Counted from the first letter of the whole stretch, positions 21,754 to 62,420 are shown. The stretch is DNA of 63,998 bases, filler included, from Dirinaria sp. TL-2023a (GCA_051941275.1; 3 parts of 3 records of this genome joined end to end with filler, not necessarily neighbours in it), one strand, 5' to 3'. Numbers and translations are program-made. The notes: generated by a model not told the origin, from the sequence alone.

Positions 21754-21853
21754 NNNNNNNNNNNNNNNNNNNNNNNNNNNNNNNNNNNNNNNNNNNNTTA
21801 ATTAATTAANNNNNNNNNNNNNNNNNNNNNNNNNNNNNNNNNNNNNNNNNNNN
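21754..21853. other. Assembly gap with artificial six-frame-stop linker TTAATTAATTAA
   Basis: 44 N + TTAATTAATTAA (21798-21809) + 44 N. Confidence 0.98.
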
Positions 21854-29075: not shown

Positions 29076-29167
29076 CGACACCTGAGAGATTCGAACTCTC
29101 GCTCCCGAAGGAACGCGCTGTACGGAAAAGTAGCAGGCGCGCGCGTTAACCACTCCGCCAAAGTGCC
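29076..29167 (-). tRNA. tRNA-Ser(GCT) with 11-nt intron
   Basis: Minus strand folds as GGCACTT/AGGTGTC acceptor, D-arm GCG-GAGTGGTTAA-CGC, anticodon stem CGCGC/GCGCG with CT-GCT-A[cttttccgtac]A, long variable arm TTCC-TTCG-GGAG, T-arm GAGAG-TTCGAAT-CTCTC and G73. A T-run lies downstream. Confidence 0.96.
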
Positions 29168-41400: not shown

Positions 41401-43168
41401 CCCAAAATCGCTCTTTAACAGTCTTGCACTGGAGCATCCGGGCATCACAATGAAGGTTTCTAAGATCATCGCCCAGCGAATGCGAGCTATTGTGGAAGAT
41501 CCTCTCCTGGAACAAGGCAAGGAAAAGACCAGCGGCACTTCCGTACAGAATGTTACCTCGAATGTCAATCTTCGAACAACTGCAATCTTACCGGTAACAG
41601 CTGGTGTACCTGTGGTAGAGTTTGGAAGCAGACTATTGAGTGCCTTCACGCAAATTGGCGTTGTCAACGGCGTGACCTCGCTTACTCAAGCAGCTATCCT
41701 GAACCATCTTGGCCGACATGCCTTCTCGAGAATGGGTAAACTCAAATTGTCACAATACCTTGCCGACCTAGAGGAGCGGTACGGGATGCTCCTATACATC
41801 GCAGACACCAACGTCAACTCACCATGGACCCAGACCTGTATCACCCAAGCGGACTGCATCCTCCTTGTCGGCCTTGCAGAAGGTTCACCAAGGATTGGCG
41901 AATACGAGAAATTCCTGTTAGGCATGAAGAGCACAGCAAGGAAGGAGCTCGTACTGCTCCATGTCGAGCGCTATTCACCACCAGGGTTGACACGTAAATG
42001 GCTGAGAAACCGTCTCTGGATCAATGGTGGCCATCATCACATCCAGATGTCGCTCCGAAACGACTCGGAGCCCATCAGTCCACAGATCAAGCGCTTCGGC
42101 ACCGCTCTGAAGCAAAGAGTTCAAGTACTGCAAGCCGAGATCCAGAAGTACACCTCCCGGAGGATCCGCCAGACCCCTTTATACTCCGCAGAAACACCTT
42201 TCAAAGGCGACTTTCACCGCCTCGCCCGCAGATTATGCGGCAAATCCGTAGGCCTTGTACTCGGTGGCGGTGGAGCTCGAGGCATCTCCCAGATCGGCGT
42301 TATCCGCGCTCTCGAGGAAGCCGGGATCCCAATCGACATTGTCGGTGGGACGTCCATTGGAGCTTTCATCGGTGCGCTCTACGCCCGTGACGCCGACATC
42401 GTGCCGATGTACGGGCGCACGAAGAAATTCGCAGGGCGCATGGGCAGCATGTGGCGCTTTGCGCTGGACCTGACATACCCCTCAGCCTCCTACACCACAG
42501 GCCACGAATTCAACCGAGGCATCTACAAGACCTTCGGCAACAGCCAGATCGAGGATTTCTGGCTCGAGTTCTACTGCAACACGACCAACATCTCGAAATC
42601 GCGCTGCGAGATCCACACCTCGGGCTACGTGTGGCGGTACGTGCGCGCCAGCATGTCGCTCGCAGGTTTGATCCCGCCGCTCTGCGACGAAGGCAGCATG
42701 CTGCTCGACGGCGGCTACGTCGACAATCTCACCGTCGCCCACATGAAATCCCTCGGCGCGGACGTCATCTTCGCCGTCGACGTCGGCAGCCTCGACGACC
42801 AGCACCCGCAGGCCTTCGGCGACTCCCTCTCGGGCGCCTGGGCCTTGCTCAATCGCTGGAACCCCTTCTCCTCGTACCCGAACCCGCCCACGCTCTCGGA
42901 GATCCAGGCCCGCCTCGCCTACGTGAGCAGCGTCGACGCCTTGGAGCGCGCGAAGCAAATGCCCGGCTGCCTGTACATTCGGCCTGAGATCGATCCCTAC
43001 GGGACCCTCGAGTTTGGCAAGTTCGACGAGATTTATAAAGTTGGGTATGAGTGCGGGAAAGCGTTTTTGGGCAGGTTGAGGGAGAGGGGCATGTTGCCAG
43101 TGATGGAGGAGACGGAGGAGGAGAAGGGTTTGAGAAGGACCATGGCGCCTAGGAGAGCGAGTGTTTGA
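38477..43168 (+). CDS. NTE1: Lysophospholipase NTE1 (neuropathy target esterase homolog; cNMP-binding domains + patatin), 2 introns
   Basis: N-terminal transmembrane segments, cNMP-binding-like domains, and patatin motifs GGGGARG, GTSIG and DGG. Confidence 0.97.
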
Positions 43169-43465: not shown

Positions 43466-43565
43466 NNNNNNNNNNNNNNNNNNNNNNNNNNNNNNNNNNN
43501 NNNNNNNNNTTAATTAATTAANNNNNNNNNNNNNNNNNNNNNNNNNNNNNNNNNNNNNNNNNNNN
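43466..43565. other. Assembly gap with artificial linker TTAATTAATTAA
   Basis: N-runs flank TTAATTAATTAA at 43510-43521. Confidence 0.98.
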
Positions 43566-43639
43566 AGTGGGTGTGAGACCATCGAACTCGATCGTATTCG
43601 CGGAACATTTTACCGCTACACCACCACTGTCTACGTTGT
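43566..43639 (-). ncRNA. Pol III-type structured ncRNA family, copy G (3' part lost in gap)
   Basis: The reverse complement is acaacgtagacagtggTGGTGTAGCGGtaaaatgttccgcgaatacgatcgagttcgatggtctcacacccact. TATA (TATATATA) lies at 43666-43673 and the A-box at 43613-43623. Confidence 0.7.
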
Positions 43640-44397
43640 AACCAATACATGTGGTTTAATTGTGATATATATACTTTAACATGCGAGAACACTTCCACGC
43701 TCAACATAATCAAGTTCTAAATCCCACTACATAGCTATGTAAGATACACTTAATACTTCCATCAACCCCTTTCAAATACTTCCGCCCCATTTCTACGTAT
43801 AGTTTACAACCCAAGGGTATCTGCGACTCTAAGTATTCAACAAAGTAATCAACTATTTCTCGACCTATCAAGGTGAACAGACAGACGTATGGCATGACTC
43901 GATTCCTACCTATGGTGTGTGTTTAAAAAGAGCAACCCTGAGGACGGGATTCTGGGGAATATAATACCTTAAAAGGGGTGCATGTAGAGTATGGGTGCAG
44001 ATAGTGATATATGGGAAAAATCATTTCGGGCTGAAAGTTCTATCGGTTCAGGGGGCTTAGGGGGAATTGGGCCGATTTGAAAATATGAATACTGCAGACT
44101 GCTAAAACAAGGCTGGAGGGGCTCATGGGGAATGTGGGGCCCTTGGACAGGGGATGATTAGTGGCGAATGGGCTGTATTTAAGGTACTTGTTGAAAAGGA
44201 CGGGCGAATGACAAAGGCGCCACCGAGTTCAGTTTCAATAGTGCTACATTTTTAAGAGTGAGCCAGGCCTCGGCAGTCTATGATGCTACTCGGAAGCAAT
44301 CAAAGTACATCACGACCGGATTTCTTGGCCTTCTCCTCACCTAAGCCGTTCCCTAGACCAATCACCGATAAGAGCTCTCTCCCATTGTCCCCGGCTC

Positions 44398-45508
44398 CTA
44401 GTCCACCTCAATCAGCCCAGGTCCGTACACCGTATCCGCGGCAACAGCATCTGGCGTCGTGAAGTTGCCCTTTCCATTAACCAGCGCAGCAATGGTCAAG
44501 CCATTTGAGAACCCGGCATCGAATGGGAAGGCCACCGTTACGAGGGTCGTGCCATTAGATCCGACCTTGGTGTGACATGGTACCGTGAGCGGCAGATTTT
44601 GGCCCGAAAGATAGACAATCGACTGCTTCTCGCAATCGACGGGCCCAGTGACCGAGAACGTGATGGTTGTGTTCTTCCCTTGAGGCTTGTTGATCAGTGT
44701 CAAAGGCTTGAAGGTCGGTAAACCGATACTTGAGAGAGGCTTCGGGCAGGAACCCGGAACGATAAACATTTGCAAGGCTGTGAATGCGAAGCCGGCTGAT
44801 CCACCTGTGATGAAGGGTGCAGCAGAGGGGGTTTTCTGCTGGAGGGTGCGGTAGAAGCCGTCTTGCTGGGATTCTTGACCAAGGATAGAACCCAGTAAGA
44901 CGACGTTGGCCACTTCGTCACCGCCGTCGGTGGCGAAGAGGGTTTGAACTTCGGGTAAGGTGCCGATAGCGAGGTCCGTGAAGGTTTGGGCGAGGAGGAT
45001 GGCGTCTTTGAATTCGCTGACTGGAAACTGGTACTCGCAGGGGGCGATGGGAGCTTGTTTGGCGCTGACGAGAATCGCGTTGGCGCCTAGGGCGTGTATT
45101 TTCTCTTGCTGGTGATCGTTAGTACTAGCGAAACATAGGTCAGGGAAGGATATAGTCTACTTCGACAATGGTCGAAAGGGCTTTTATCACAAAGTCTCGG
45201 TTGAGCTCAGGATGTGAAGACTTGATGTCATAGCCTCGCGCATTCGACGTCACATTGTTCAGCAGCTCCGTGAAGAAGGCGACTTCGAAGAGCTCATTGT
45301 TGGCAAGAAGCTGGAGAGCAGTAACAGCACCGCTCTTCAGGCTGGTGGGAAGAGGTCCGTTCGGCAGAGGCCCTCCCGCTGCCTTCTCGACGCGAGCGAG
45401 TTGAGCCGGGGAGAGGTTGGGGAAACCATCAGGCGTCGGGAATTTGAACGGAGCGGCTACGGTACCAGCGATGGCAATGGAGAAAGTAAGGATGCTGAAC
45501 AGATACAT
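44398..45508 (-). CDS. Secreted ferritin-like domain protein (Rds1/LsdA 'sexual development protein'-like), one intron
   Basis: Signal peptide MYLFSILTFSIAIAGTVAA, LQLLANNELFEVAFF, QEKIHAL, PCEYQFPV and ILGQESQQDGFYR. Confidence 0.85.
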
Positions 45509-45605
45509 GGCGGGAGCTGTGAGACTGGGAGGGTGGATGGGAGAGGGTTGAAGGGTGAATGGGAGAGTAAAGATAGACGGTGAGTGGAAAAAGAAAGGAG
45601 GAGGT

Positions 45606-45650
45606 GGAAGAAGAAGAAGAAGAAGAAGAAGAAGAAGAAGAAGAAGAAGA
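45606..45650 (+). repeat. (GAA)n microsatellite in the 5' region of the ferritin-like gene
   Basis: About 14 tandem GAA units within a polypurine tract. Confidence 0.95.
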
Positions 45651-48600
45651 GGAGCAAGAAAAAGAGGAAGAAGAAGACGAAGGAGAGGAAGAGAAAGGGG
45701 AAGGGGCGGTGATATCATGACATGAATAAGAGGAAGGGCTGAGTTACACAGCAAATGACCCAAGGTAAGTGTTGTTGCACAGCAAAGGAAGGCGCGTTGT
45801 CCCGACTCGACCAATTGTGGATTAGCGGTAACACGTGTGGAGTAGGCGGGACACACGAGCCCTCTGGATTAATGTAAATACATGAAGCAGTGCCTTAGGT
45901 ACCGTACCTTAGGATTCCCTGTTGACGGTTTGGTAAGGTAGGTAGGTAGTCCCGATTTCGCTGCGGGTCCGTTCTTTGTTTGCTTGTTGCCCACTGCGGA
46001 TCATCTCTGGATCGGCGATAGTCGGCGATAGTCGGCAATAGCCCTAATGAAAGGCCTCAGAGAGATATTTGCCAAGCATCAAGGTAGGTTTGATAGAGAG
46101 CCGTACTTATGAGGTACTGCAAGAAAGCAAGCCACTTCGACTACCCTACTGTAATAAGCGCTTTAGGCTCTGTTATTTAGAAATTCCGGTACGCAATAAT
46201 AACGTTGGGGAAACCATATTTAGGTCTGTTTCGCAGAATGGGAATAATTCGCCGAAGCGGTAAGCAGGATAGAGGGATTCAATTCTCCGTTTTAGATTGG
46301 CCCGCACACAAAGCGTGATTTCGAGCATAACTCCCACGCAAGGCCAAGCGCATAATACAGATTTGAAGTATCAGGATTTCAGACCACAACGCTCCGGGAT
46401 ATATCTGGCAAGACAAATCTTTTGATACTGGGCTCTGGGTCTAGCATAACACTCTCCAGCCTGTTGCTCCCGACTCCGTGCCCTCAATATCCGTGGCAAG
46501 AGTCTTGGGGGAATCAACCACGTCTACCGATGATGAGATGGTCGTGACGGCTGCAGAACAAGAAACCTAGGTAATTCAATGATGACTCAGGCTAGAAAAT
46601 ACATTGCGAAAAGAGTGGGAGCGATAGAGACTCGGTAGAGGAATGAGGAAGCTCATAGACGAAGCTAAGGCCGAGGAATGTATTGCTGGCGACATTGAAC
46701 GTTGCGGTCGATTTCAATGGCTCTTCCTTCCCTACCAGATCAGCCTTTGCCTGCTCTTCTATGTCTTGCGATAGATGTAGATCAGTTTCACTGCTGTTCA
46801 TCGATCAACGAGCGAAAGCAGAGGGTGAAGCTGGTATTGTGGATGCTGACAAAGTATTGATCGATGGAGTTGTCTCTGAAGTCCGGTCGTGTCGATTTTT
46901 ACGACTGTTGCTTACTAATCAAAAACCCTCGATCCCAGCCCATCACAAGTCTCATTGAGCAGGTATGAGATGTACGCTGATCAAGGTACATCAAGAGTAC
47001 CGTAGTCCACGCATGTGGTACCGCCTTCTTCGCAGCGACCGTAGACCAGCTCCAGTATCTCCGCATAATCACAGACCAGCTGAAGAATCGGTTCGACTGA
47101 GAGAGTCCAAAGACCTGAATGCCCGAATCTGGACTCCATGCCGTTATGGCATTATATGTCTCTGTAATCAGTAGCCCCTAGGTAGCCCCTTGAGCACGCT
47201 GAGCATTCCTTCAACTCTGATCCCTGAGGGGCTGAGGGTTTTTATCGCAAGCTCTCAAGATACGAGGCGATCACTATATTAACTCCAGCGACAAAATACT
47301 AGTAGTGGATATGTCTCTGGGGTAAAAATAAAAGAAGAAGAGAAAAAAAAAACAAACAAACAAGTCTTGGGTGTCCGGCTCACTTACGACTAATTTCACT
47401 ACCTGGATGTAGACTGCTATCCTCTCCAAGAAAGTAGATTCTCTGGTAAGCCATTGATAGTCTCATTCTCACCCCTTGCTTCATTCTGATACTATCTAAT
47501 TTCGGCAGCGACCTTCAGCTGTCATTGATAAAACCTAGAGAGCTTCAAAGTCCCCCTCCAGAATTCGTGCCACCAAGTTGCAGACTTTATCTTCAGCTTT
47601 TCTTGCTGACTGTCGTCCACTCTGCCTCAGAACCCTCAACTCCCTCACCCGCCTCTCCTCCTACATCTGATTTTGACTCTCTCATTTTTCCCTCTTTCAA
47701 TTTCTCCTCGCTCACTTTCTCCTCATGCTTTAATTTTTCGATTTTTTTCCGACACTTGTTGATTTCCCTTACCAGCTCTTGGACATGCTGCTTGCGTTTT
47801 CCGTTTGGAACTTTACGCATGAATCCAAGCGAAGGTTCCTGATAATGGCCTTGCAATATTTCAAATGAATTTGAGCCGGCGCTTCTGGGCGCAGCCCCTT
47901 ACAGTTCAGTCAGTTGAGATACTGGAAAAATGCAGTTATGAGGTTCGCTGTTACCTGCAGATATGGCCTTTCCTAGCGCCTTTTCGCGTTCTTCAACGTC
48001 CTTCTGCACAAGTTTCCACTCCGCTGAGAGTTTTTGCCAGTCAAGTTCGAAACCTAGTGAAGAACGATCGCTTGGATCATAGTTTTTAGCCAGGAGATGC
48101 TCGTCGGTTTTGTGCATACTTATGAATTCTTCACTGAACTTTTGGAGAGCTGGAAAGCCATGTATGGGGAAGCTTTGAATATATACATGAGTTTGGCAGA
48201 GCTTGATAAAAGAACAAGAAGCCAAAGAAGTGGCTTGCTGCATGTTCTCCAGACGTTTATTTCTTTGATCGTCCTTCAGAAGTACGACATATTTCTTCTT
48301 TGAGTCGGTGTTTGCTGGCTGGCTTCACTTTGTTCGTCTGCCAGTGATCTGATGAGAAAAGAGCAAATTGTTTTATCGTACCTCTGGATATGACACTCTT
48401 TTGAGTCTAGAACAAGCGCTGCGAGTTCTAGATTACGTGAATGAATGATTGTTTGGCTGTAACCGTCACTACAGAGGTTGGTTTCCGACTAAATGCATAT
48501 GTATGGTTTTGTCACATTCTGTTGCCGTATGAGGATCATCAAAACTCTCTGATCCCTCTTTCCAGTCTGTGTCTGCATCATGGCAAACCCTGATGTTCGC

Positions 48601-50802
48601 TGCCTGCGATAGTGACTATATTGCTTTGCACCTCAGTAAAAGTCTCACCCCCTCGTTGGCCATGTGTTTTTCAACATGTTTCAGGCCCGGCTAGAGCCGT
48701 AAACATAAGCAGTTGCGATGGCTTCCCGTCATCGGCAGCAGGAGCTCGCTAGCAGATGAGATTTTTTTTTTTGGCGTGTGTCATGCATGTATAGCAGAGG
48801 TACTAACAATAGGACAAGCAATGTATGGCAGCGGAGCCCGGAGGCGATTCATTACCTGATCCAAACCCTCACGTGTGCCAAAATGTCTGGGCAACTGACT
48901 TGCCAGCACTATGCTAGCCTCGAACATCACAGAATGCCCATCGGATGCTGTAAACCCTTGCAAGACTGCTGCCCAAGCACTTCACATCGATTTTCCAAAG
49001 ATAAGCCAGCCAACCAGACCCTGTTGCTTAAATACTGGGGTACCATTTTCGCCAAAGCGCTTCCATTTATAGTGCTATTTGCGTAGGCTGATATGAGAGC
49101 AACGAACGATGGATTTGGCAAAAAAAAAAAAAAAAAAAAAAAAAAAATAAAGGAAAACAAAATAAATTAAAACAATATAGCGGGGAGGAATTAGAGTCCA
49201 CGTGTGGTAAAGTCCACGAAGTGGATAAGGTGGACGTTTGTGGAAGGGTTCGAGCAGAAATATAAGTTATTATACAGAGCCTCGCCGTACTCCTCCATTG
49301 ATTCCTCAAGCAGGACAAGAACCTCCTGCCGGAAATCCGGTGTTGGAATCCGCAGCTCAGGCCAGGTAATCCGAGATGCAGCTCAGGGATCTGCGCTGAC
49401 CCCATTATTCAAGTTTTTCATATGTTCCCGTCGTCTGCAGCCCCAGACGGACCAAACCTATGTTCCGGCAAAAGATCAGAATCTTGGAACTGAGCATTTG
49501 AAATTCAGATTTTAGAAATCATATAGACTCGTAGAAGATCACAGATTAGTCTGAAAATGTTTCCAAGTTGAGTAATATTGGAGTTAGTCGTATCTTCGTA
49601 TTTTGACGTCACCGGTCCCCACTGTCTCATCGTCGCTATTTCGCCTACTGGATTGCCTCTGATCCTCCCTCTCATGCTGCCTATTAATCAAGGTGACAGA
49701 AATCCTTGGGGTCTTGCTGAATAGTAGGGTTAGTCGTTGATGGTCGTCAAGCGCAGAGAAATTATGTGGTGCCCTTGAAGGGTTACTTCTGTATAGGACG
49801 TTTATGGGTCTAGCCTGTTCGGACTAGAGATCTACCAGGACTGCAGGCGCTTGGAATCGCGCCAATCAAGCTACACCACCCACATCCGAGCACTCATAAC
49901 TCTCGAAGTTGACTGAAGAGTACAAGAAGAAGTTCTATCAACGTGCCTCACGGGCGCAGGTTGAATGCCACCACCTCATTCAGTGGCATTGTTTTAGAAG
50001 TCGACAATGCGTCAGGAGCTGCCTTGATCTGCCCACACAGGAAGATTGAGAAATGAGACTGAAGGCTTCCTCAGTATGTCGATATCGTTGCCGGATTGCT
50101 CGAGGTCGTCTATAGACGTCTTCACTTGCAACAGATCCTGCTCCAATATGAAGAATCGAAAAATCGCCGCTGCGAGAGCATTCGATCTCAAAGGCCCGTC
50201 GGCCACATCTGTTCCACAAACATATTTCCCGTGCCTCAACAAGGCTCGGCTGCATGCAGAATCCCCTCCTGAAACTTAACATGCAGGAAAAAGGTTTGCC
50301 GAGTCTGGTAATCTCTAATACGATTCTATGGCTCCGGAGCACAGTACATTTATGCATCTGAATCTGCCTGATATCGACCTGCGTGGGCATTTTGAGTTTG
50401 TTTCAAGATTTCTATCCGAGCCTCATAGCCTTAGGCTTTATTTAGCAGATCTCTGCATTTTCCTCGACATACAAGCCAATGATATGGGCCCACTGAAAAT
50501 GTGCATCTGTTTCATCAAGATACTGCGGGGTAGTCCATATGCATCTATTCTCTAGACATTTCCTCCAGATGCCGTCCCAGGCGCTTAACTGAGTGGACCA
50601 TCGACGCAGCCTCGTCGGCGAGCGTTCTTGATCTCGAGGACTCTGAAGGCACTTAAGGCATGCGTTGTCCGTTTCTTTTCTTCTTTTCACTGCCTTGACG
50701 AAAGCGGCCGTTCTTTAGTAAATTTGCATCCCGCGAAGCAAATATCCGTTAATAGTTTTAAGCTTCTCGCTTGTCACTGCTTGAACTATCAGCCTTCGGA
50801 GC

Positions 50803-52286
50803 ATGATGTCAAAGTCACCCTCCGCTCAGACGCCGGATCAGGCTGAAGCTCAGCGACAAGCACTCTTGAATGGACCAGCTGCGCCGCCTCCATCTGGCGT
50901 CATGCCCAATTTCGAAAACCCATCGAATCTAGACGCATACGTGATACTAACGATAACGCTATGTGTAAGCCTTAGTACAGTGTCTGTGCTACTACGAATG
51001 TACACCAAGAAGTATATAATCAGATCTTTGGCATACGAAGACTGTGGGTTCTGGATCGATTCACCATGAACAGTGTCCTCACTACTAACGATATCAAGAT
51101 GTCATCCTTATTGCTTGGGTGCGATTTAATCAGAAGACTGCATTTTTAATAGCTGACTGTAATAGATTGGTCAGGTTGGGAGCACTATTCCGTCCGGCAC
51201 TGTCACCAAATATAGCGGAGGGAGGCACATGTGGAACGTTCGACTGCACACATTCTTCAGCATGCTTTATGTAAGTCCAAATCGACCAAACTCCGTGATA
51301 TGTAGAATTTCACTGACCGCGGGGAAGTGGGTAAACATTTCGGCTATCGTCTATGGTTTTGTCGTTTTCTTCGTCAAGCTTTCGATCCTTCTTCAATACC
51401 TGCGCATCTTTGCACCCACGAGAAAAGGGAACATGTTTATGTTCGTAGGAGCCCAGCTCTGCATCTGGATTGTCCTCGTCTTTTACCTTGTGGAAAGTGT
51501 GTTCGAGATTTGCAAATGCACGCCTCGAGCAAAGATCTGGAACCCACTAATGAAAGGTGGTCATTACTTTAGCCCATACGGCACCTTCCAAGCGACTGGG
51601 ATCTTCAATGCAGTATCCGACTTTGCTATCTTGATACTTCCGATGCCATCCGTATGGAAACTGCAACTCCCGCTGAGGAAAAAAGTGCTAATGACCGCAA
51701 TATTCGGTACAGGACTTTTGTAAGTCATCGTTTGCCCTACTGCTTCGCATGCACTTCGGGAACGCAATTGACACTAGCTAGCGCCTGCATGAGTTCTGTG
51801 CTGAGGACATACTATACATGGAGAATTGTCGAGTCTCCCGACGTAAGCTATTACATGACACTAATGGGGCTATAGACTAGTGCAGAGCTCTCCACGGGCA
51901 TTTTCATAAGCTGCGTTCCCGTCATGCCGAAGTTTTTCCGGCATGTGGGCCCCAAGGTTTCTAGAGCTATCGCGACCAAAAGACTTTTTATGAAGTCTTC
52001 AGCTGGCTGTTCAGTAGATGAGCCACGACTTCTGGCGGCCTCCGAACACCAACGGAGTGTCCTTTCCAAAATCCAAGAAAGTCTAGCGTTGACTAAGTCC
52101 AAGGCATCTGGCGATGTGTACAGAAACCATTCGCCACGTCCGGAAGACTATGTCGTTGACGACGAGGTAAACGCAACGCCTGAGAGTCGATTCGACCAGC
52201 TGCGCCCGCTACCAGACGCAATGCTCGCTACAAGGAGAAATGACTTGGAGAGCGCCCACTGTGGCAATGAGCGTGGTGAATGGTGA
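50803..52286 (+). pseudogene. PTH11-like / fungal rhodopsin-domain integral membrane protein with premature stop
   Basis: PPPSGVMPNFENP, VLLRMYTK, FVKLSILLQYLRIF, SDFAILILPMPSVWKLQLPLRKK and MGL*TSAELSTGIFISCVP. An in-frame TAG at 51873-51875 falls where this family usually has Trp. Confidence 0.7.
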
Positions 52287-52749
52287 GGGTGCCGGCAAGC
52301 TTGTGAATGTTAGACATGAACACTTTTAGCATCCCTCAGCTTACCAAGTAGGCAACTGTCAAAGAGTGGGATATATCATCGGCAGAAGTATTGAGCTCAT
52401 AGAGGCCTAATGAGGTAGGCTCCTTAGCGATCAGCAAGAAGGGCGGTATGAAGATGTCTAAAACTTAAAATGGAAAGTCGACAACAAAGTTCAATTTGTC
52501 TCATTTTGCACCTTTCGATATTTCTCAAAGTCTTCTCCACTTCTCCTGATCTTCCTACCTTTTCATCAGGGATGCTGCTGTTTTCGCGCACAAGGCCAGC
52601 TTAGAGCTCATAAACGGATCCCTTCCTCGCGGTACGAGGACTCAGGTAGTCGTAGCAGTGTAGAAGCTACTTCAAGTTTCCCCTTCTACACGTGCAAGCA
52701 GCGTGCTTCCATACTGCTGAGACTTGATAATTCATGAGTAGAGGTGTCA

Positions 52750-53400
52750 TGTATCTCTCTCTCAAGCTCATCACTTGGTAGTGTTCATGTTGTTGAGACG
52801 CCGTGTTCTTCCAGGTGATAGAATGAACGAATAAGCGTAGAGTCGAAATGAATGTCAGATTTATCTGTGCGAATCACTTTCGCTGGTAGAGAGCCGCGCC
52901 TCCAATGCGTGGTATTTGGCGCAGATGGAGCTCAGGTGATGCTTGTGCTTACGCTTTTAGTTTGCTGGCAATCATCGAGGTTTGTAAGGAGGTCTGAGGG
53001 ACTTCTTCGACTCAAGATTTTCAAAGATGTAGAGCGAAGGCTTTCTGACTGCAGACGACTCAGGATATCTGTGTAGGTGGCCGAAAACATGTCTGTATGT
53101 GAGATGGTCAGCACGTATAGTCCAATCGCCATGAAGCAGATAAAAGACATGTTGTAGTCAGTCACCTTGATTCCTGATAATGAACGCCGAGAATAATCAT
53201 GAAGATCATGTTGTAATGCGGAGATGCTTAGTCTCTCTTCGTATCTATGCGCCGGAGGATGATAGACAGGAGAAAACAAGTAAGGCGTAAGTCTTTACAC
53301 AATCGGCATGAATGTGCATGATTGTGTTGATGATTTATGATCGCGATTACATCATGTCTGTTACTACAAGTTCTACATAGGATAGGCAGTTCATACGTGG
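52750..53400 (-). pseudogene. Decayed intron-containing gene, paralogous to 58850-59426, divergent from ncRNA copy A
   Basis: Shared peptide blocks FSPVYHPPAHRY / FPTTYHLSAHRF and TDKSD...LIRSF / ADKSD...LIHSF, and a shared acceptor-like gtgctgaccatctcacatacag / gtgctaatcactcactcacatatag. Stops are present. Confidence 0.5.
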
Positions 53401-53575
53401 ACGTTATTGCTCGCAAATCTTCTCGGATTCCTAATGTATGTAGTAGAGTAGAGAAAGTCTAATTTCCAGTATGTGATAAACATGGAATGCGCTGTGCTAA
53501 GGCTTTTAAGTTAGGCAGGAAAGTGTTGTCGGATTTTAAAGTATATATATTATAATTAGATCAAGTACATTGGTT

Positions 53576-53709
53576 ACCACGTAGACAGTGGTGGTGTAGC
53601 GGTAAAGGTCCGCGAATACTATCGAGTTCGATGGCTCACACCCACTCAATACGGTTGATCCCCCATAACCAAAATTTTTTGGCTGAGGGTTCAAATCCTC
53701 GTGTGCACA
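53576..53709 (+). ncRNA. Pol III-type structured ncRNA family, copy A
   Basis: TATA 53542-53550; A-box TGGTGTAGCGG 53592-53602; T6 53675-53680; B-box GGTTCAAATCC 53688-53698; long T-tract to 53765. Confidence 0.8.
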
Positions 53710-54355
53710 AACCCTTTTCTTTATTTTTTTTTTTTTTATTTTTTTTTTTTTTTTTTTTTTTTTTTGGTGGCTCGCAGTCCTCGCACCATACTATCACAAA
53801 CCCTATACCACAGCCCCTTTTCCGATGCCCGTCCTTGCCCCAACCACTCCCCCTTTCACACCTGCCGCACCCCTTTTCGATATCCACTCTCCATAGTATG
53901 GAGTAGATGATAGACCTAGCGTGCAAAATCACGATCCAGCTCCTGAGGAGGCGCATATTTGATCTATTTCTCACCAGAGCGTTTTACAAAAGGTAGCATC
54001 CAGTACATCACGTGCATCATTGTGATCTGAAATCGAAGTTGACTAACTATGTATACAAGTGTTCACAGATCATCGAAGGTATTAAGCCGATCGGGAGACC
54101 TCATGTTATCACGGCTACAATCTCGATATAATTGGGTCATTTTCATGCGTGGGAGCTGTTTCATGTAATGGTCGACGCTCGGAGCCTGGTTACAATCTTC
54201 AAAGGGCAAGGTGAAGGAACGAAAGCATCGTATGAGGATACACACAAGAACCAAGCTTGGTGTTGGGGTACTATAATCAAGTACTGGAATATCAAACATC
54301 AAGCAGGAATACTATGAGCAGTCTTGAGGGCGGACATATAGGCAGGCAGTGGTAT

Positions 54356-54684
54356 TGTGGGTATTACGTCCCTGGACCCCTGCACCTCTAAGACGGTGTC
54401 GGATTTTGAGTGATGAGCGCGTCGCAGAGAAGAAGATGTTGTCGGCGAGTAGACATCGCAAGCCTAGGTAATGGGGCACGGCGGCAGACCAGGCAGAGGG
54501 TGGTGGTGACGTGTGGGCGGCTCTCCGCCAGTGTATGTAATACTTGTGTTTGTATCTAGATCATCATCACTCATTAGTATTCATACAGGACCTATACAGG
54601 TCGATTCCCCCAGGCTATTGCTGCATCCTTTGGTGCTAGGTTATCCTCCTGCTCTATCTGGTATCTAGAGTCTAGTATCCCACA
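54356..54684. mobile_element. Possible solo LTR (TGTGGG...CCCACA, 329 bp)
   Basis: TG...CA ends with a 6-bp perfect terminal inverted repeat (tgtgggtattac vs tgtgggatacta). No target-site duplication is seen and there is no second copy in the window. Confidence 0.3.
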
Positions 54685-55068
54685 TCTGTTCCCTCACACT
54701 GTGTGTATCGTTTATGATGAATGCGAAATACCCTTTTTTTTTTTTTTTTTTTTTTTTTTGAATTAGCTCAGAGTTCCCAGATCAATAGATGATGTTCGGT
54801 TTTGCACAAACCAGTAGGGATAAGTTCAAAGGATGCGGATGGCGAAATAGGGGCTACGATACACGTATATGAAAAGTTCCAGGCTTTTTTTTCCCTTTCA
54901 TGTTACGTCGCCTGAATATCTTTATACAGTCGAGACAGAATCATGACACACTACATGTAATTGCAATGAAACTTCTAAGGTAACTTTGGTGGCTCAGCGA
55001 GATATATAATTTTACCCTCTATGGAATTTAAAGTATATATATAATAATTGGGCCAAATGTTATCGGTA

Positions 55069-55187
55069 ACCACGTAGCAAGGTGATGGTGTAGCGGTAAA
55101 GTCCGCGAATACTATCGAGTTCGATGGCTCACACTCACCCTATACGGTAGAACCCCCTTTTTGCAGGTTCAAATCCTGAGGTGTGCA
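55069..55187 (+). ncRNA. Pol III-type structured ncRNA family, copy B
   Basis: TATA 55034-55043; A-box 55086-55096; T5 55158-55162; B-box GGTTCAAATCC 55166-55176 within CAGG-TTCAAAT-CCTG; T15 from 55191. Confidence 0.8.
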
Positions 55188-56995
55188 AACTTTTTTTTTT
55201 TTTTTCTTTTTTCTTTCTTAGCTCACACTAATTACACCATCTTATGTTTGCATTCGATTCATCCAGTAGGGGATCTACAGTTATAAGATATGTGTTGGAA
55301 ATCTCGCTGATACCTAGCGCCTTAGCATGGTTATGTGCCCACCACTCCCCAGCAATTCCATCCTCAGTGTCGTCCAAAACGTCACTTTTCAGCATACTAT
55401 CAGCTCAGTCTCGCCCTGTATACTCGAGGAGTGATACTCCCTGATCTATAGCAGATGCTAGCATATTTTAATTAAAGCCCTATATCGAACAGTCACGATG
55501 TTCTACGCGAGCAGTCACGGTCACAAAATCGAGCTGTTGGAAACTATACATCGGGTAAGTCACTACAAGTCATGTCTCCTAGGCTAGAATAGCTCCTTAT
55601 TTGAGGCAGTATGACCTGCCTGATACCAGAAGTATACATATTTTAAACAGTGTCGGAAACAGGCCTCTGTCGTGGTCAGCAACGTTACAGTTTGATCCAG
55701 GATGATCTATTGAATCGAAATGCCCTGTTTCGTGAGCTGCAAAGTTTTGATTTGTGGAATAAATCATGATCAGAATTTGCTAGCGTGAATGTTCTTAGTA
55801 CACTTTTCGCTCTCTCGATCACGAGCGAGTTTTGCGAGCTCAAGGAGACTGTAAGAGAAGGATATACACTACGAGAAAGCAGAAGATGCCGCAGAAAGCA
55901 GCGTCGGTCGAGAATATTTACACAACAAGAAGGATAATATGAGTCAAATGAGACCCCAATGGCGACAGGGGCGTCTCGCTTAATGGGGCGTGTTGGAAAG
56001 TTCCCACATACCTGGTGCCTTGACGTGGCTTTGCGTATAAGGAGACAAACTCTTCCAACAATTTCGTCCTGAAGATCATCAAAAATTTCAAGATACAAGA
56101 GTGCTGTCACCCCTTTTTTTGTATCCGCAAACCCCGAACATACTTTAGGATTGATGGAAAACGTACTTATAAGTGTATGTAATTGGCTTGAAAGGCTCTG
56201 ATTACTGCAAAAAGAGAGTAATACTGCTCGTCCGTTCTAAAATTACACATCTTTTCAATCTTTGAGCCTTTAATGAGACTCAAAATGTCATAGGACAGAG
56301 CAGAAACGCATGCAATTGACCTTGTTGTTTTTCAGATTTCCCAGTAGTGACGAAGGTATATTCATTCGATTGAGCGTAGTATCTTTGATCATCTGCCAAC
56401 ACATACCATTATAAAGCATGTACGATGAGGTCTTTCACTTATGACTATCACTCACAGTGCTGCCAGAATCATATTTGCATGTAGCTGAATGTATCCCTTC
56501 AGCACTCGTAAAGCGTATAGTTACACTCATATTGAATTTGGACGAAAAATAGTGTATATGGGTCTGGTAAGGTTTGAACCATGTAACGACTTTCTAGCTT
56601 TGACATAATAAGTTGGATTCTGCGTGGTGCAGTGCAAGACATATTGACTCTATCTCATACCGGCCAAACATGGGCCTACTAATGAGCGGGATCATGGAAA
56701 AATGAATAGATAATACAAGCTCACTGTTTACTCAGTACAGGAGGGTGTCCAAGATGTCCAAATCGAGGGGTTGGAGAGGGTTTAGATTTGATAAAGGACT
56801 GTGAGGCGTGTCGCTTTTTCCACCCGAGAGATTTTGATAGTTGACATGTTCAACAAGGCATTGCAACTCGGAATTGATCACTAAGATAATACATAGAAAG
56901 GTGGTAGCCCAGGGAGACCCCACGCCTTAATGGTAACTTTAAAAGAATAAAAAGTATATATATATATACAATAATTGGACCAAATTTTAGTGGTA

Positions 56996-57114
56996 ACCAC
57001 GTAGCAAGGTGATGGTGTAGCGGTAAAGTCCGCGAATACTATCGAGTTCGATGGCTCACACTCACCCTATACGGCAGAACCCCCTTTTTGTGGGTTCGAA
57101 TCCCGAGGTGGGCA
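56996..57114 (+). ncRNA. Pol III-type structured ncRNA family, copy C
   Basis: TATA 56955-56968; A-box 57013-57023; T5 57085-57089; canonical B-box GGTTCGAATCC 57093-57103; T-tract 57117-57142. Confidence 0.82.
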
Positions 57115-57116
57115 AA

Positions 57117-57148
<32 letters not shown>

Positions 57149-57302
57149 AGCATTAGTAAATATGTAGATGACGACCCTTTTAAATTCTCTTGTTACTATG
57201 TAGCAAAGCGACTATGTAGCAAGGTCGTGCTTATGCGCAGCCAAAGCTCGACCCTTCAAATTTAAACTATATATATAATAATTGGATCAAATATTATCGG
57301 TA

Positions 57303-57422
57303 ACCACGTAGCAAGGTGATGGTGTAGCGGTAAAGGTCCGCGAATACTTTGGAGTTCCATTGTCTCACACCCACCCGCTACGGTTGAACCCCCTTTTTGC
57401 GGGTTCGGATCCGGAGATTGCA
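57303..57422 (+). ncRNA. Pol III-type structured ncRNA family, copy D (most diverged, tandem to C)
   Basis: TATA 57268-57277; A-box 57320-57330; hairpin TGG-AGTT-CCA 57350-57359; T5 57394-57398; B-box variant GGTTCGGATCC 57402-57412; T-runs from 57426. Confidence 0.7.
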
Positions 57423-58849
57423 AACTTTTTAATTTTTTTAATTTTTTGCGAGCAGTTCGACTACTTCTCAATTACAAATCCATACTCACAATCAACTTTT
57501 TCTGTGTTCGCAAGACTCAATGTTGACTTTATTGCATCCCATATGATGAGCTAATGATGAATTCAGTCTGTAAGCTCATGATTCTGTTTTTTATCAGGCG
57601 TATTTTTGATCATCATGATCTATACGCAATATCTTTGACAACGCGCTATGAGTAAGTCAGACTTATTCTGTCCAGGTCAGTCGATGACTTATGCACGAGT
57701 AATGTTAAAAATCATTTCTTGGGCGATTCGAGTCTTCTCAGCGCTAGAGATGATGATACAGCGAGCATGATTGTCTTGAGAATACTGTCTCTAGAGTTAA
57801 ATACTTCGTCTACCTTTTCCGCTGACATTTGTAGTGGGTGAGTTGGGTAAAGAGAAGCGAAATTACATCGTGCGATGAAGAAGGAGGCGGTATTGAGGCA
57901 ATTGTGAAAATCAGAAAAGATGCTGAAATTTCGTATATACTCGTTCTCGTATGTACTGTTTAAATCACTATCAAAATTGCGTCACATGTATGGTGGAAAG
58001 ACCGAGAAAGTTCAGAGCACTGGTCGATCTATTACTATGTCTCGATCATTTAACTACATCGAAATGGCAAGACATACATCTAGACATTTGTCTTTAGTCG
58101 AGCTAGTCACATCTTCGCATGACTATGTGTATTCAAGAAGTTCAATCCTTCTAGCACTTCCATCTTCAATATCATCAAAATTGTCAATAACGCTGGTGCA
58201 TGGTGTCTCGACTTTGTTGCTAATCGTAGAACGAACCACCTGTTGTACCAGTACTGCTACTTTCAGCCAGCATTAGAATTCAATGACTTTGTTAGACCTG
58301 ATCCATTGGGAACGTGAAGCTAGAGATAAAGACTGTCTTGATATCGAAATATTACAGCGACGAGTTTGACTTGTCTCTTGTAGCGATAGCAATACACGCG
58401 GTTCGGCAGGTTTGGAGGATTAAGAGAGAAAAGAGAATAGTGAGGGATGACGCAGCGGAAACTCAGAGAACACCTATTGGAAACCCCATTTTCGAAGCGT
58501 TTTCCCTCAGGCAAATTTCCTCTATCCCGTATGTTAAAGGCTGCGAACGAGACTGACACAAATAGAGGCAGCCGTGAGCGGCGAAGAGTTCGCCCCCGAG
58601 CGGAACTTGTTTCGTTGTCGACGGAAATGCGGGCGCAGCAAGTGCAGTGTCGTCGCTCTGTTATGGACCTTTGGTGTACCTTCTCGCTGAAGAGCTCCAC
58701 ATGTTCTCGCAACTTTAGATCGGCTTAGCATCGATTCGATCAGAGAAAACTCGTTCAGCATTTCTCTCTCTTGTCACTTAATGAGTTTAAATAGTTCTTA
58801 CTGATAAAGATTTTCATCGGCGGACATTGCTAAGACTTGAATACTCATG

Positions 58850-59426
58850 GTCGCCGGTATCATCCATCTCTCCCAAAATCATCTCTTTATTTTGCTGTTG
58901 TTGGAGAAAAATCTTGCTTCTGCTTGGCAGAACGAATGGATAAGACCGAGTATCGAGTCAGGAGTCAGATTTGTCTGCGGGAATCATGTAGCTTATGTAG
59001 CGGACGTGTCGATGGGATCGTTTTCTATTTAGACAGAGCCCGTCCGGTGTTTTAGCTGACGCGTATGATTTGTAGAGGAATTTGTGAGCTTAGAGTCTTT
59101 GGAGATGTGAAAGCAAGACTTTCTGGTTGCAGATGATCGGGGCTAGATGTGTAAGGAACCAAGGAATGCCTATATGTGAGTGAGTGATTAGCACCTATGT
59201 AGATCTTGCTTGATTACGCCGACGAAGAGATCGCGTCATCACCTTGTTTGTCGCTCAAGGGCGCCCAGAAGATCCTTAGAAACATCCCGAATTCAATGAT
59301 GCTGGCTGCTCCTCTAAATCGATGGGCCGAAAGATGATAGGTAGTAGGAAAGGTAAAAATGGTTTTGTTGACAATATTCTGTCGCAGTTGGTGTTCCAGT
59401 TGTAGGCCGTATTTGTGATGGAACAT
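58850..59426 (-). pseudogene. Decayed intron-containing gene, paralogous to 52750-53400, divergent from ncRNA copy E
   Basis: ORF 59214..59426 plus downstream segments align by eye to the copy-A flank, e.g. gtcagatttgtctgcgggaatca vs gtcagatttatctgtgcgaatca. Stops and frameshifts are present. Confidence 0.5.
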
Positions 59427-59602
59427 AGCTAATGGAAATGCTCCTCAAATTTCTACGTAGAATGGCAGAACTCAGAAGTTGTCTTTTAGTGTGTGATAAA
59501 TGTGCTGTGCCGCGGCTATTGTGAGTGTGTTGGTTGGTTAGAACAATCAGTGTTATTGAAATTAAAGTATATATATTCTAATTAGATCAAATCCTAGTGG
59601 TA

Positions 59603-59722
59603 ACCACGTAGACAGTGGTGGTGTAGCGGTAAAGGTCCGCGAATACTATCGAGTTCGATGGCTCACACCCACTCAATACGGTTGAACCCCTCTTTTTGTG
59701 GGTTCAAATCCCGATGTGAACA
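59603..59722 (+). ncRNA. Pol III-type structured ncRNA family, copy E
   Basis: TATA 59568-59575; A-box 59619-59629; T5 59693-59697; B-box GGTTCAAATCC 59701-59711; T-runs from 59725. Confidence 0.8.
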
Positions 59723-61119
59723 AATTTTTTTCTCCTTTTTTTCTTTTTTATTCCCCATCTCTCCATCGTTCAGTACCTCGTCTTGCTAAGAAGAAGTGTC
59801 TAGAGGTCTGGGTACACCTACAGTCATGATTTTACCGATGACTCTATGAAGGCTATTGATGCTACCTCGCGTATGTCCTTGAGATCATAAGGTAGGCACA
59901 TACTTTAAGATATGCGAACGCTGCTATGCATTTACTCTCGACCCGCATAAAAACTCTTAATTCTATATCGAGCCTTGGATACATTTAAAACACCCACATT
60001 TTTTTGTATTTTGATACAGTTGCCAGTTTCATCGCAATAATATTTAAAGCGTTAGATGATGTGGGCACCCGTCCAGGGTCCACTGCCTACGTAGAGGAAG
60101 CCATGTCCCAGGCTCTACTACCTAGTGACTCATAGACTGATACAGTTGGCGATCTATGTGACGATTACAGTGGCAATTTATATGACAGGGAGTATATGAT
60201 GGGTATGTAAAGCACTTCCAACATCACCAGTGACTTCCAAAAATGCTCCAATATGGCGTTGAGTATCGCACTACAGAAGCTCTCCTTTGCCTATCCACCC
60301 ACTCCAGGCGTAGGTAGATCGAGTTGTTGGTGCTAGGGACGGCATCTTTTGGGGCTATTTCTGCTTTCTATATAGAAGTCTCTGGCCCCGGCGAGGCCCA
60401 ATACCAATATATATGACTTTGGCTAATACTAGTTCCATAAGACATTGAAAGCACATCCTTGTTCCATGTACCGTACTTCTTTTTAAAAGATTTGTGCCGC
60501 CCAGTATCACATCCGCCGCACCCTCTTCTCGTTATTTGCTGACCCTAGTGTTTATAGACTAATCGTGGGTTCCCTAATTGTAAGTGACAATACCATATTC
60601 ATATTCATCTGCGCGGGAACACCACCAGTGACCACAAATGCACACCCATTGGGTGGCATCAATGACTCTGACAGAATAGACATCGACATCTAGACACTTC
60701 CACCCAGTCAAGCCAGCCCCTGGGGCAAGAACGTGTGTACATATTCTGTGGCCAATGCGAAACAGTGTTTTCTTTTTTCATTGGATAGGAGTACTCCAAA
60801 CCAATCATGACAATTTGAATAATTTGTCGATAAGCAAAATTCTGGAAGGTGTGGAGGTCCAAATAGGATGTGTTCAGGAACGTGAGAGTACGGTTGCTGT
60901 CATTCCTGTAAAAGCATTGTAAGCCTGTTTATAATTAATTAGGAGAAAGAGCGCGGGGGGATGACTACAATTAATTGCAATGTAAATTTTATGCTAGGTA
61001 ACGATGTAGTAAGGTGGTAGCAGAACGAAACCCATAATTTTACTCCCTATAGAATCTATGATTGAAGTGTTGTGGAATTTAAAGTATATATATTGTAATT
61101 AGATCAAATCTCAGCGGCA

Positions 61120-61238
61120 ACCACGTAGGCGGTGGTGGTGTAGCGGTAAAGGTCCGCGAATACTATCGAGTTCGATAGCTCACACCCACCTGATACGGCA
61201 GAGCCCCCTTTTTGCGGGTTCAAATCTCGGTGTGTGCA
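61120..61238 (+). ncRNA. Pol III-type structured ncRNA family, copy F
   Basis: TATA 61085-61092; A-box 61136-61146; perfect CTATCG-AGTT-CGATAG hairpin; T5 61209-61213; B-box GGTTCAAATCT 61217-61227; T-runs from 61243. Confidence 0.8.
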
Positions 61239-61748
61239 AACATTTTTTTATTTTTATTTTTTCTTTTTTCTCTTGGAAGCTGTTAGCGTTCTGGTAGCCT
61301 TAGCATAAGGCTAGCATCGAAATCCTCCAAATGACGCAACCTCATACACCTACCCACTGAAAATATATCGGCACAGTAACATTTTGCAGATGCCTGCAAT
61401 GCAGTCTTGCGCGCTATTGCGCACAGCCCACTAAGTGTTGGAAGCGGAAAGACAACAATAAGGTAGGGTGGCCTTGGGCGCCTTAAGTAGGTATCTATGA
61501 CTCACAGCTGCAGCCCCGCAATGCAACTCCGACAATTGATACTTAGCATCCACCACTACCCACAGCGATCTCTCTCAAGAGTTTTTCGTGGAAGTTTGAA
61601 TAAGCCATTCTATCGAAATCTCTCCCATTCTCCCCGTCGTACTTCCGCCTTTACAAGAGGACACACAATATCGTTACAGGCAACCCCGGCCTCCGGTATC
61701 AGCACGAATAGCAATTCTATCGAGTTCAAAACCACGCCTAACTTCAAG

Positions 61749-62420
61749 ATGACTTCTACCTCTACCAACCAAGCTTTATACCAAGAGGCTGACTCAGCCA
61801 GCGATAAAACCTCGGTACCCAATGACTCTCCCGCACCCAGCCCACGTACTAGCATCACAAGCGCCTCCGAAATCTCAGATGAAGATGATGACGAATATGA
61901 AAATCTGGCCCAACCTCTTTTCGATCTGATCACGAACCACGTCGCCGAATGCCAGAGATCGCCCGAATACCCAATCTCAAGCACTGATTTCCCTTCATTC
62001 AAAACCTTCTGGCGCTCACAGTTCGACCACCTCCGCTCCTGCCTAGTGGACTCCCAGGAGAATCGCTTACTGATCACGTATCCGCCTCTTCGTGTTCTCG
62101 AGATAGCGATCCTTGATAACGCGGAATTGCCCGAATGTCCCTGCGATCTCGATCATCGGGATGCTGATATTGTAATCCGTCAGTCCGATGGGATCTCGAG
62201 AGAGGGTTTACTAGGGGCCATAAATGAGGCGCTGTATGGGGACGGGGTACAGAGCGAGGATCTCCCGCTCTGGACAAAATATGGTGGGCGGTTGGTGGTC
62301 AAGGGGTGGAACTGTATGTTGCAGGATGAGAATATTTTCTATAAAGGGTCTTCAAACACAAGAATGAGAATATGGATACATTGCGCTGGAGCTGACGATC
62401 AGAATATTGGCTCGGTATGA
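61749..62420 (+). CDS. Hypothetical protein (~223 aa; ORF open from 61497), acidic N-terminus, no recognised domain
   Basis: Intact ORF with a plausible ATG context (ttcaagATG) and a protein-like C-terminal half (ECPC...GISREGLLGAINEALYG). Confidence 0.6.
   Translation: MTSTSTNQALYQEADSASDKTSVPNDSPAPSPRTSITSASEISDEDDDEYENLAQPLFDLITNHVAECQRSPEYPISSTDFPSFKTFWRSQFDHLRSCLVDSQENRLLITYPPLRVLEIAILDNAELPECPCDLDHRDADIVIRQSDGISREGLLGAINEALYGDGVQSEDLPLWTKYGGRLVVKGWNCMLQDENIFYKGSSNTRMRIWIHCAGADDQNIGSV

Follow-up and report, generated by a model that had tools for sequence, protein, structure and literature searches.

A cluster of candidate tRNA-derived small RNA genes with an SNR6-like promoter arrangement in the lichen-forming ascomycete Dirinaria sp.

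The products of RNA polymerase III (Pol III) in fungi are thought to be few and old, comprising tRNAs, 5S RNA, U6 RNA, RNase P RNA, the signal recognition particle (SRP) RNA, and a few others. In the present study, we analyzed a stretch of 63,998 nucleotides from the genome of Dirinaria sp. TL-2023a (GCA_051941275.1), hereafter called the window, in which seven copies of a short cassette with Pol III-type signals are clustered. We consider that the cassettes constitute a tRNA-derived family of Pol III small RNA genes with an SNR6-like promoter in this lichen-forming ascomycete, and we put the probability of this reading, judged from sequence, at about one half.

The closest described promoter is that of SNR6, the U6 gene of Saccharomyces cerevisiae, in which a TATA box is combined with an intragenic box A and with a box B located beyond the terminator (PMC9136082). 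As regards promoter architecture only, the cassettes share this order of elements if the T5 run that they contain acts as the terminator. However, the B-box of the cassettes lies 3-7 nt after the T run, whereas that of SNR6 lies more than 100 bp after it; the cassettes also add an internal B-like box and form seven clustered copies, and their predicted RNA is not U6. With ordinary tRNA genes (type 2 Pol III genes) the cassettes have in common an A-box, a T-arm-like hairpin carrying the B-box, the distance of the upstream TATA, and an oligo-T terminator. Unlike tRNA genes, they have neither a cloverleaf nor an acceptor stem for the T-arm, and their anticodon-like arm is not maintained.

Y RNAs, vault RNAs, and the tRNA-like mascRNA resemble the predicted product in size, in a helix closing the 5' and 3' ends, and in a 3' U tail, and occur as multi-copy clusters in animals. 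The cassettes, however, have no Rfam match to any of them at E<=10, and we know of no Ro or vault partners in ascomycetes. A further group to be compared is the tRNA-related short interspersed nuclear elements (SINEs) of ascomycetes, which are 140-493 bp long, low in copy number, and in some cases transcribed (PMC5063351). AfuSINE2 of Aspergillus fumigatus and the cassettes both have a tRNA-related Pol III promoter; AfuSINE2 has target-site duplications of 4-14 bp and a tRNA-unrelated extension (PMC5063351), whereas the cassettes lack duplications, share an upstream TATA flank, end in T runs, and cluster on one contig.

Position and anatomy of the cassettes

The window consists of three contigs, between which N44-TTAATTAATTAA-N44 linkers were placed (21754-21853 and 43466-43565); adjacency across these linkers thus carries no meaning. 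All seven cassettes (A to G) are on the third contig (43566-63998, 20.4 kb), within 18 kb, and an nhmmer profile found none on the other two contigs (43 kb in total). The profile was built from the six full copies, B to G, and did not include copy A. The same seven places were obtained by a repeat search, a MAFFT alignment, a self-blastn of the contig, and the profile, and are those given in an earlier interpretation made without database searches (hereafter, the sequence-only reading). With nhmmer, the six full copies had E-values of 1e-57 to 1e-64, and copy A had one of 1e-28; at E<=10 there were 11 rows, namely the seven copies and four rows at E 1.7-8.6. Pairwise identity across the cassette is 74-87% in the gapped alignment and reaches 92% without gaps, C and D being the closest pair. 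The exact 27-mer GGTGTAGCGGTAAAGGTCCGCGAATAC around the A-box occurs four times (none in 100 shuffles), and GGTTCRANTCY occurs five times, always inside a cassette (mean in shuffles, 0.5). For the loose A-box pattern TRGYNNARNGG, the 14 occurrences in the whole window are what chance would give (13.2 expected), and seven of them are in cassettes.

Each full copy has the same order of elements. TTAAAG-TATATATA, which contains the TATA, is followed by a 27-nt spacer, ACCACGTAG, and the A-box TGGTGTAGCGG, which overlaps a GCGG/CCGC hairpin. Next come GAATA, a hairpin containing the B-box-like GAGTTCGAT, CTCACACYCACY, a variable linker, TACGG, and NNGARCCCC. The 3' part consists of a T5 run (T6 in B), a hairpin with the canonical B-box GGTTCRAATCC, about 12 nt ending in CAAAY, and a T-rich run. 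Between ACCAC and the T5/T6 run, no run of four or more T was found in any of the six full copies.

The spacings are nearly fixed. From A to G, the start of the TATA precedes the start of the A-box by 50, 50, 52, 58, 52, 51, and 51 nt, in exact agreement with the sequence-only reading, which had given 50-52 nt in six copies and 58 nt in one, at 56950, the TA run of which is expanded. The distance from the A-box is 31-32 nt to GAGTTCGAT and 80-82 nt to GGTTCRAATCC (96 in B), and TATATATA starts 34-35 nt ahead of ACCAC (41 in D). Measured from ACCAC, the inner T run ends at 94-96 nt (105 in B), and the first four T of the outer run are reached at 126-127 nt (143 in B); the RNA sizes proposed earlier, about 95 or about 120 nt, fit these measurements.

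As a yardstick we used tRNA-Ser(GCU) at 29076-29167 on the minus strand, which has an 11-nt intron according to ARAGORN and is the only certain Pol III gene in the window. In its flanks (29020-29260), TATATAA starts 35 nt ahead of the tRNA 5' end, and there is a T8 terminator. Since the cassette TATA stands at the same distance, the promoter geometry of the cassettes matches that of a genuine Pol III gene in this genome, as far as one comparator goes. Judging by this tRNA-Ser gene, the observation also suggests that TATAs upstream of ordinary tRNA genes are used by this fungus. All the features of an SNR6-like Pol III architecture, that is, a TATA about 30 nt before the predicted start, an A-box, a B-box, oligo-T, and fixed spacings, are found in the sequence. 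Thus, of the earlier proposal of a Pol III-type gene, the signals themselves (TATA at a tRNA-like distance, A-box, B-boxes, and T runs) are present, and from them we infer transcription by Pol III.

The TATA and the inner T run could also be read in another way, as parts of Pol II-transcribed genes for small nuclear RNAs (snRNAs) of the Sm class, with a TATA at -30, a U-rich Sm site (YUUUUUG), and a 3' terminal hairpin. An inner U run followed by a hairpin is indeed present in all six full copies, and copy B reads AAUUUUUUGG, a textbook Sm site. However, the Sm site RAU(3-6)GR is found in only one of the six (B), the others having CUUUUUG, and no snRNA model of Rfam matches. In addition, the A-box, the two B-boxes, and the T run right after the hairpin are Pol III signals, and the TATA distance equals that of the tRNA gene. 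We regard such Pol II genes as very improbable.

The individual copies are placed as follows. Copy A, the only one on the minus strand (43567-43695), has its TATA at 43673-43666, ACAACGTAG at 43639-43631, the A-box at 43623-43613, the hairpin GCGG-TAAAATGTT-CCGC at 43616-43600, and GAGTTCGAT at 43589-43581. It ends at the contig end after ...CTCACACCCAC, next to the N linker at 43565; its truncation is thus a matter of assembly and not of biology. The remaining copies are on the plus strand. In copy B (53521-53765), the TATA is at 53542-53549 and the 5' domain, from ACCAC to TACGG, at 53576-53654, with the A-box at 53592-53602 and GAGTTCGAT at 53624-53632; an 11-nt insertion lies ahead of the inner T6 run (53675-53680), and the B-box GGTTCAAATCC (53688-53698) and the T-rich run (53715-53765) follow. 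Copy C (55020-55219) contains the TATA at 55034-55041, the 5' domain at 55069-55147, the A-box at 55086-55096, GAGTTCGAT at 55117-55125, the inner T5 at 55158-55162, the B-box at 55166-55176, and the T-rich run at 55191-55219. The TA run is expanded in copy D (56948-57145), whose TATA starts at 56955, 58 nt ahead of the A-box (57013-57023); its 5' domain is at 56996-57074, GAGTTCGAT at 57044-57052, the inner T5 at 57085-57089, and the B-box GGTTCGAATCC at 57093-57103, and its T run begins at 57117.

Copy E (57250-57447) is the most diverged. Its TATA is at 57268-57275, its 5' domain at 57303-57383, and its A-box at 57320-57330; GAGTTCCAT (57352-57360) stands in the place of GAGTTCGAT, a C-G to G-C swap is found in hairpin 2 of the predicted fold described below, and the inner T5 (57394-57398) is followed by a variant B-box, GGTTCGGATCC (57402-57412), and the T-rich run (57426-57447). 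For copy F (59548-59752), the corresponding positions are 59568-59575 (TATA), 59603-59681 (5' domain), 59619-59629 (A-box), 59651-59659 (GAGTTCGAT), 59693-59697 (inner T5), 59701-59711 (B-box), and 59725-59752 (T-rich run). For copy G (61064-61274), they are 61085-61092, 61120-61198, 61136-61146, 61168-61176 (GAGTTCGAT), 61209-61213, 61217-61227 (with the B-box reading GGTTCAAATCT), and 61243-61274, in the same order.

Uneven conservation and the predicted fold

Conservation is strongly uneven along the cassette. The 5' domain (83 nt, ACCAC to TACGG) has 92% pairwise identity, and 65 of its 79 columns are invariant. Identity is 89% in TTAAAG plus the TATA (10 of 14 columns invariant), 74% in the spacer from the TATA to ACCAC (13 of 27), 75% in the B-box hairpin (9 of 18), and 77% from the hairpin to CAAAY (5 of 10). 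It falls to 41% in the 20 columns before TTAAAG (1 of 17 invariant) and to 29% in the 25 columns beyond the T run (0 of 25). Because the neutral decay of a repeat would be even, this profile points to selection on the 83-nt 5' domain. The concentration of conservation there would also fit an RNA that ends at the T5 run, with the canonical B-box just beyond the terminator, the arrangement known from SNR6.

The same profile bears on the possibility that the cassettes act as DNA, as a cluster of TFIIIB/TFIIIC sites serving as a chromatin boundary or organizer. Barriers formed by yeast tRNA genes and extra-TFIIIC sites are the model for such a role, and it would suit six copies with strong B-boxes on the same strand in 7.8 kb that lack a Pfam-recognizable gene. 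It would likewise suit the two open reading frames (ORFs) tested in the spacers, of which one lacks a real homologue and the other, an orphan, has one. However, conservation is highest over the whole 83-nt domain, including TCCGCGAATAC, CTCACAC, and TACGG, rather than at the A or B box, a pattern for which TFIIIC binding offers no explanation, and the hairpin of the canonical B-box is among the less conserved parts. We therefore consider a role at the DNA level improbable.

The 5' domain can be folded in all seven copies into a three-way junction, in which 98.1% of 156 cells are paired (RNAalifold and explicit pair counts); when the partners were slid by 1-3 columns as a control, 29-49% of cells were paired. 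The predicted junction consists of a closing helix in three segments (CGUA/UACG, GGUG/CACC, and GGUGU/ACAC), a D-arm-like hairpin 1 (GCGG/CCGC), and hairpin 2 (CUAUCG/CGAUGG). Two pairs show compensatory changes, from G-C to A-U at 15:77 (in two copies) and from C-G to G-C at 53:60 (in one copy); one further pair varies between G-C and G-U, and the stem of hairpin 1 is kept across loops of 6, 7, or 9 nt. On the 3' side of the T5 run, either of two hairpins, which exclude each other, can be reconciled with the data. One of them, GAACCC/GGGUUC with the U run in its loop, is 94% paired with no covariation, and the other, in the T-arm register, is 92% paired with one compensatory pair; neither register is preferred.

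If the cassettes are Pol III genes, the following mechanism may be proposed. TFIIIB would be placed by the TTAAAG-TATATATA element, and TFIIIC would bind the intragenic A-box TGGTGTAGCGG and, in addition, the canonical GGTTCRAATCC box, the internal GAGTTCGAT box, or both. Transcription would start a few bases 5' of ACCAC and would terminate mainly at the conserved T5/T6 run, yielding an RNA of about 95-100 nt with an oligo-U 3' end; the hairpin of the canonical B-box would then follow directly on the first terminator, an arrangement like that of SNR6, the U6 gene of yeast. Some polymerases may continue to the long T run and produce an RNA of about 130 nt. In fission yeast, read-through is more frequent at a 5T than at a 7T terminator (PMC3592421), so that the longer form is plausible. 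The selected part would be the 83-nt 5' domain, with the three-way junction as a tRNA-like body without a working anticodon arm. As for the role of the RNA, our guess is a tRNA mimic or a protein-binding small RNA rather than a decoding tRNA.

A broader claim may be made tentatively, and we hold it to be possible but doubtful: that the cassettes represent a new class of Pol III RNA in lichen-forming fungi, that is, a tRNA-derived, multi-copy clustered RNA of about 95 nt, folded as a three-way junction without an anticodon arm, transcribed from a split promoter like that of SNR6, maintained through gene conversion and selection, with a function as a tRNA mimic or as a regulator that binds proteins. 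If this were true, a multi-copy, lineage-specific Pol III RNA would be a clear exaptation of a tRNA gene into a new fold, and it would be the first specific small non-coding RNA for lichen biology. Genetic tools are lacking for lichen fungi, and the compact TATA/A-box promoter with its terminator could drive guide RNAs in them. If the cassettes are only a local repeat, they would still illustrate well how a tRNA-derived DNA unit can spread without retroposition.

Comparison with known RNA families

In a search of the whole window with Rfam 15 at gathering thresholds, the sole match was the tRNA-Ser gene, and none fell on the cassettes. When the threshold was relaxed to E<=10 for 53400-61400 and for a single cassette by itself, no family match to the cassettes was obtained either; the rows that fell on them were at chance level and far under the gathering scores, namely Sacc_telomerase, with a template-like CACACCCAC (E 0.21), the Tymovirus tRNA-like element (E 1.8), Plastid-ycf2 (E 4.4), and mir-362 (E 5.3). 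At default thresholds, ARAGORN predicted no tRNA in the cassettes, whether or not introns were allowed; with introns, there was no prediction in 53400-61400, and the tRNA-Ser at 29076-29167 was the sole one for the whole window. Relaxed thresholds produced 18-185 calls per 8 kb, inconsistently Arg, Val, or Ile and equally frequent outside the cassettes, which we regard as noise. The sequence-only reading had stated that the cassettes match no tRNA, 5S, U6, SRP, or RNase P/MRP motif and had proposed the Rfam search as a check; Rfam and ARAGORN recognize nothing in them, so the statement holds.

A tRNA identity was rejected on these grounds, there being no ARAGORN call at the default threshold, no Rfam tRNA match at E<=10, and no cloverleaf. 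The earlier statement that an anticodon arm is absent needs qualification. The cassettes do contain an anticodon-loop-like CUCACAC in a weak stem, GAUGG-CUCACAC-CCACY, in which 70.6% of cells are paired; however, this stem is not maintained, in that one of its pairs is formed by no copy and the substitutions in E and G disrupt it. In copy G, a G-to-A substitution replaces a U-G pair of hairpin 2 with U-A, but the anticodon-like stem would be disrupted by it. The blocks GTGTAGCGG, AAAGGTCC, CGAGTTCGAT, and CTCACAC may correspond to those of a eukaryotic tRNA-Val(CAC) in scrambled order.

Other candidates were tried and rejected. A U6 snRNA was dropped, as ACAGAGA or GAT[TC]AGC occurs in none of the six full copies and no Rfam U6 match was found, and a C/D box small nucleolar RNA was dropped, as the C box RUGAUGA occurs in none of the six and CUGA in three, at differing places. 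By eye, we also dropped a hammerhead core, an SRP Alu domain, 5S RNA, a U5 loop, a Ro site of Y RNA, a split, permuted, or multi-intron tRNA, and a spliced-leader RNA. Pattern scans for the cassettes in metagenome, prokaryote-genome, and viral collections gave only four matches (two metagenome, two genome, and no viral). These four loci match the profile only over the seeded 25 nt or so and are thus chance matches. No published description of the cassettes was found in the literature searched, with Repbase and Dfam outside that search, and motif words retrieved unrelated primers only.

Copying of the cassettes and neighboring genes

The flanks of the cassettes bear on how the copies arose. No target-site duplication was found at any of the six full copies: the longest words common to the 70-nt flanks are 5-7 nt, within the range of shuffles (mean 5.3-6.1, maximum 8-11). 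Similarity begins upstream of the predicted start, TTAAAG-TATATATA and the next 27 columns being common to all copies at 74-89% identity. From these two observations, the copies do not appear to be retroposed transcripts. The sequence-only reading had named a SINE as the alternative, to be recognized by hundreds of dispersed copies with target-site duplications and the lack of a common upstream flank; there are no duplications, the TATA flank is common to the copies, and in the three contigs of the window the seven copies are confined to one. Among the 27 ORFs scanned on the contig, none has a retroelement or transposase domain, and no A-rich tail or tail like that of a long interspersed nuclear element (LINE) is found on the cassettes. 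A blastn comparison with a word size of 9 showed that the spacers share nothing except T and A runs and thus contain no hidden tandem repeat unit. Repeat-induced point mutation was rejected as the cause of the unrelated spacers; the indices in the spacers (TpA/ApT, 0.71-0.92; (CpA+TpG)/(ApC+GpT), 1.18-1.23) are close to those of the rest of the window.

There are also traces of the cassettes outside the seven copies. At 54734-54790, a solo T run of 27 nt is followed by TTAGCTCAGAGTT...CAATAGAT, which resembles the approximately 30 nt after the T runs of B and C. An eighth cassette, now lost, may have left its tail here; upstream of the solo run, no cassette was detected by the profile. Since these approximately 30 nt are common to B, C, and the solo run, the copied unit does not stop at the terminator. 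Between D and E, at 57150-57258, there are two or three partial repeats of TATGTAGCAA(A/G)G, which are like the leader CACGTAGCAAGG; the nhmmer E-value of 1.7 is not significant. A 27-nt A run lies at 49120-49146, an unrelated intergenic place. Long A/T homopolymer tracts thus seem common on the contig, and the T runs after the cassettes would be partly a habit of this genome.

These observations raise the possibility that the cassettes are a tRNA-derived repeat without RNA function, either a SINE-like or non-autonomous element or a DNA unit of about 215 bp whose local copying would proceed through recombination, or through template switching, between T and TA runs. In favor of this, the cassettes are short and rather sharply bounded, and even between C and D the spacers have nothing in common; the cassettes carry tRNA-type A and B boxes, and their TA and T runs are microsatellite-like. 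One copy stands exactly at a contig break, and the fungal tRNA-related SINEs mentioned above are 140-493 bp long and low in copy number (PMC5063351). The sequence shared beyond the T run by B, C, and the solo run and the partial repeats of GTAGCAAGG between D and E can be added. However, the six full copies have no target-site duplications, and the TATA region upstream of the start is copied, which a retroposed Pol III transcript would not carry. Nor are there an A-rich or LINE-like tail, or reverse transcriptase or transposase domains in the 27 ORFs; seven copies lie in 18 kb with none in the other 43 kb, and the identity of 92% in the 5' domain against 74-77% elsewhere is far from even. On balance, we think a repeat without function unlikely, though deserving serious consideration.

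The ends of the cassettes may also recall solo long terminal repeats (LTRs) of a small LTR retrotransposon. Copies A, B, F, and G begin with (A)AGTGTT, the body ends in TGCA/ACA before the T run, and some flanks contain TGGTAGC-like words that resemble primer-binding sites. The TGTT start is, however, confined to these four of the seven copies and absent from C, D, and E. Flanking duplications and internal retroelement domains are lacking on the contig, and A and B boxes at a tRNA-like spacing from the TATA are not expected of an LTR. An origin from LTRs is thus exceedingly improbable.

Several observations weigh against our preferred reading of a small RNA gene family. The earlier proposal of a novel family of structured RNAs stands insofar as the fold fits all copies and no known family matches; however, covariation is limited to two pairs among seven paralogues, 18 of the 23 pairs never varying, and the energies are like those of shuffles, with minimum free energies no better than shuffled sequences (z from -0.2 to -2.4 in 12 folds). 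The shuffle control for the fold was reached 10-12 times in 500, which means that such pairing is attainable by related sequences without structure. The informative sites give mutually incompatible groupings of the copies; the copies thus exchange sequence, which could contribute to the central peak of conservation, and gene conversion centered on the middle of the cassette could also yield such a peak. A T5 run inside a Pol III gene, the very long T runs, and the expanded TA run have the look of microsatellites, and copy E has a degraded B-box and an altered hairpin 2. The fairly sharp ends of the unit and the unrelated spacers, even for C and D, also fit a mobile or locally copied DNA unit, and the approximately 30 nt beyond the T runs, together with the partial leader repeats, look like copying at the DNA level.

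The surroundings of the cluster are poor in recognizable genes. Among the 27 ORFs scanned, none in the 7.8 kb with copies B to G is recognizable by Pfam, and one spacer ORF gave only two weak matches in 1.84 billion representatives. Just past copy G, an ORF at 61497-62420 on the plus strand overlaps an annotated protein of 223 residues without a Pfam domain; a single relative, 61% identical, was found in 5.8 billion clusters, and the ORF is thus a lineage-restricted orphan adjoining the cluster. The third contig also carries a gene with a fungal-rhodopsin domain. A long ORF on the second contig is 100% identical to an NCBI protein assigned to a metagenome-assembled Dirinaria genome, and has its closest relatives in other lichen-forming Lecanoromycetes. 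At 39029-43168 on the plus strand, a gene encodes an NTE1-type lysophospholipase with cNMP-binding, NTE P-loop, and patatin domains, which is about 90% identical across many lichen-forming fungi.

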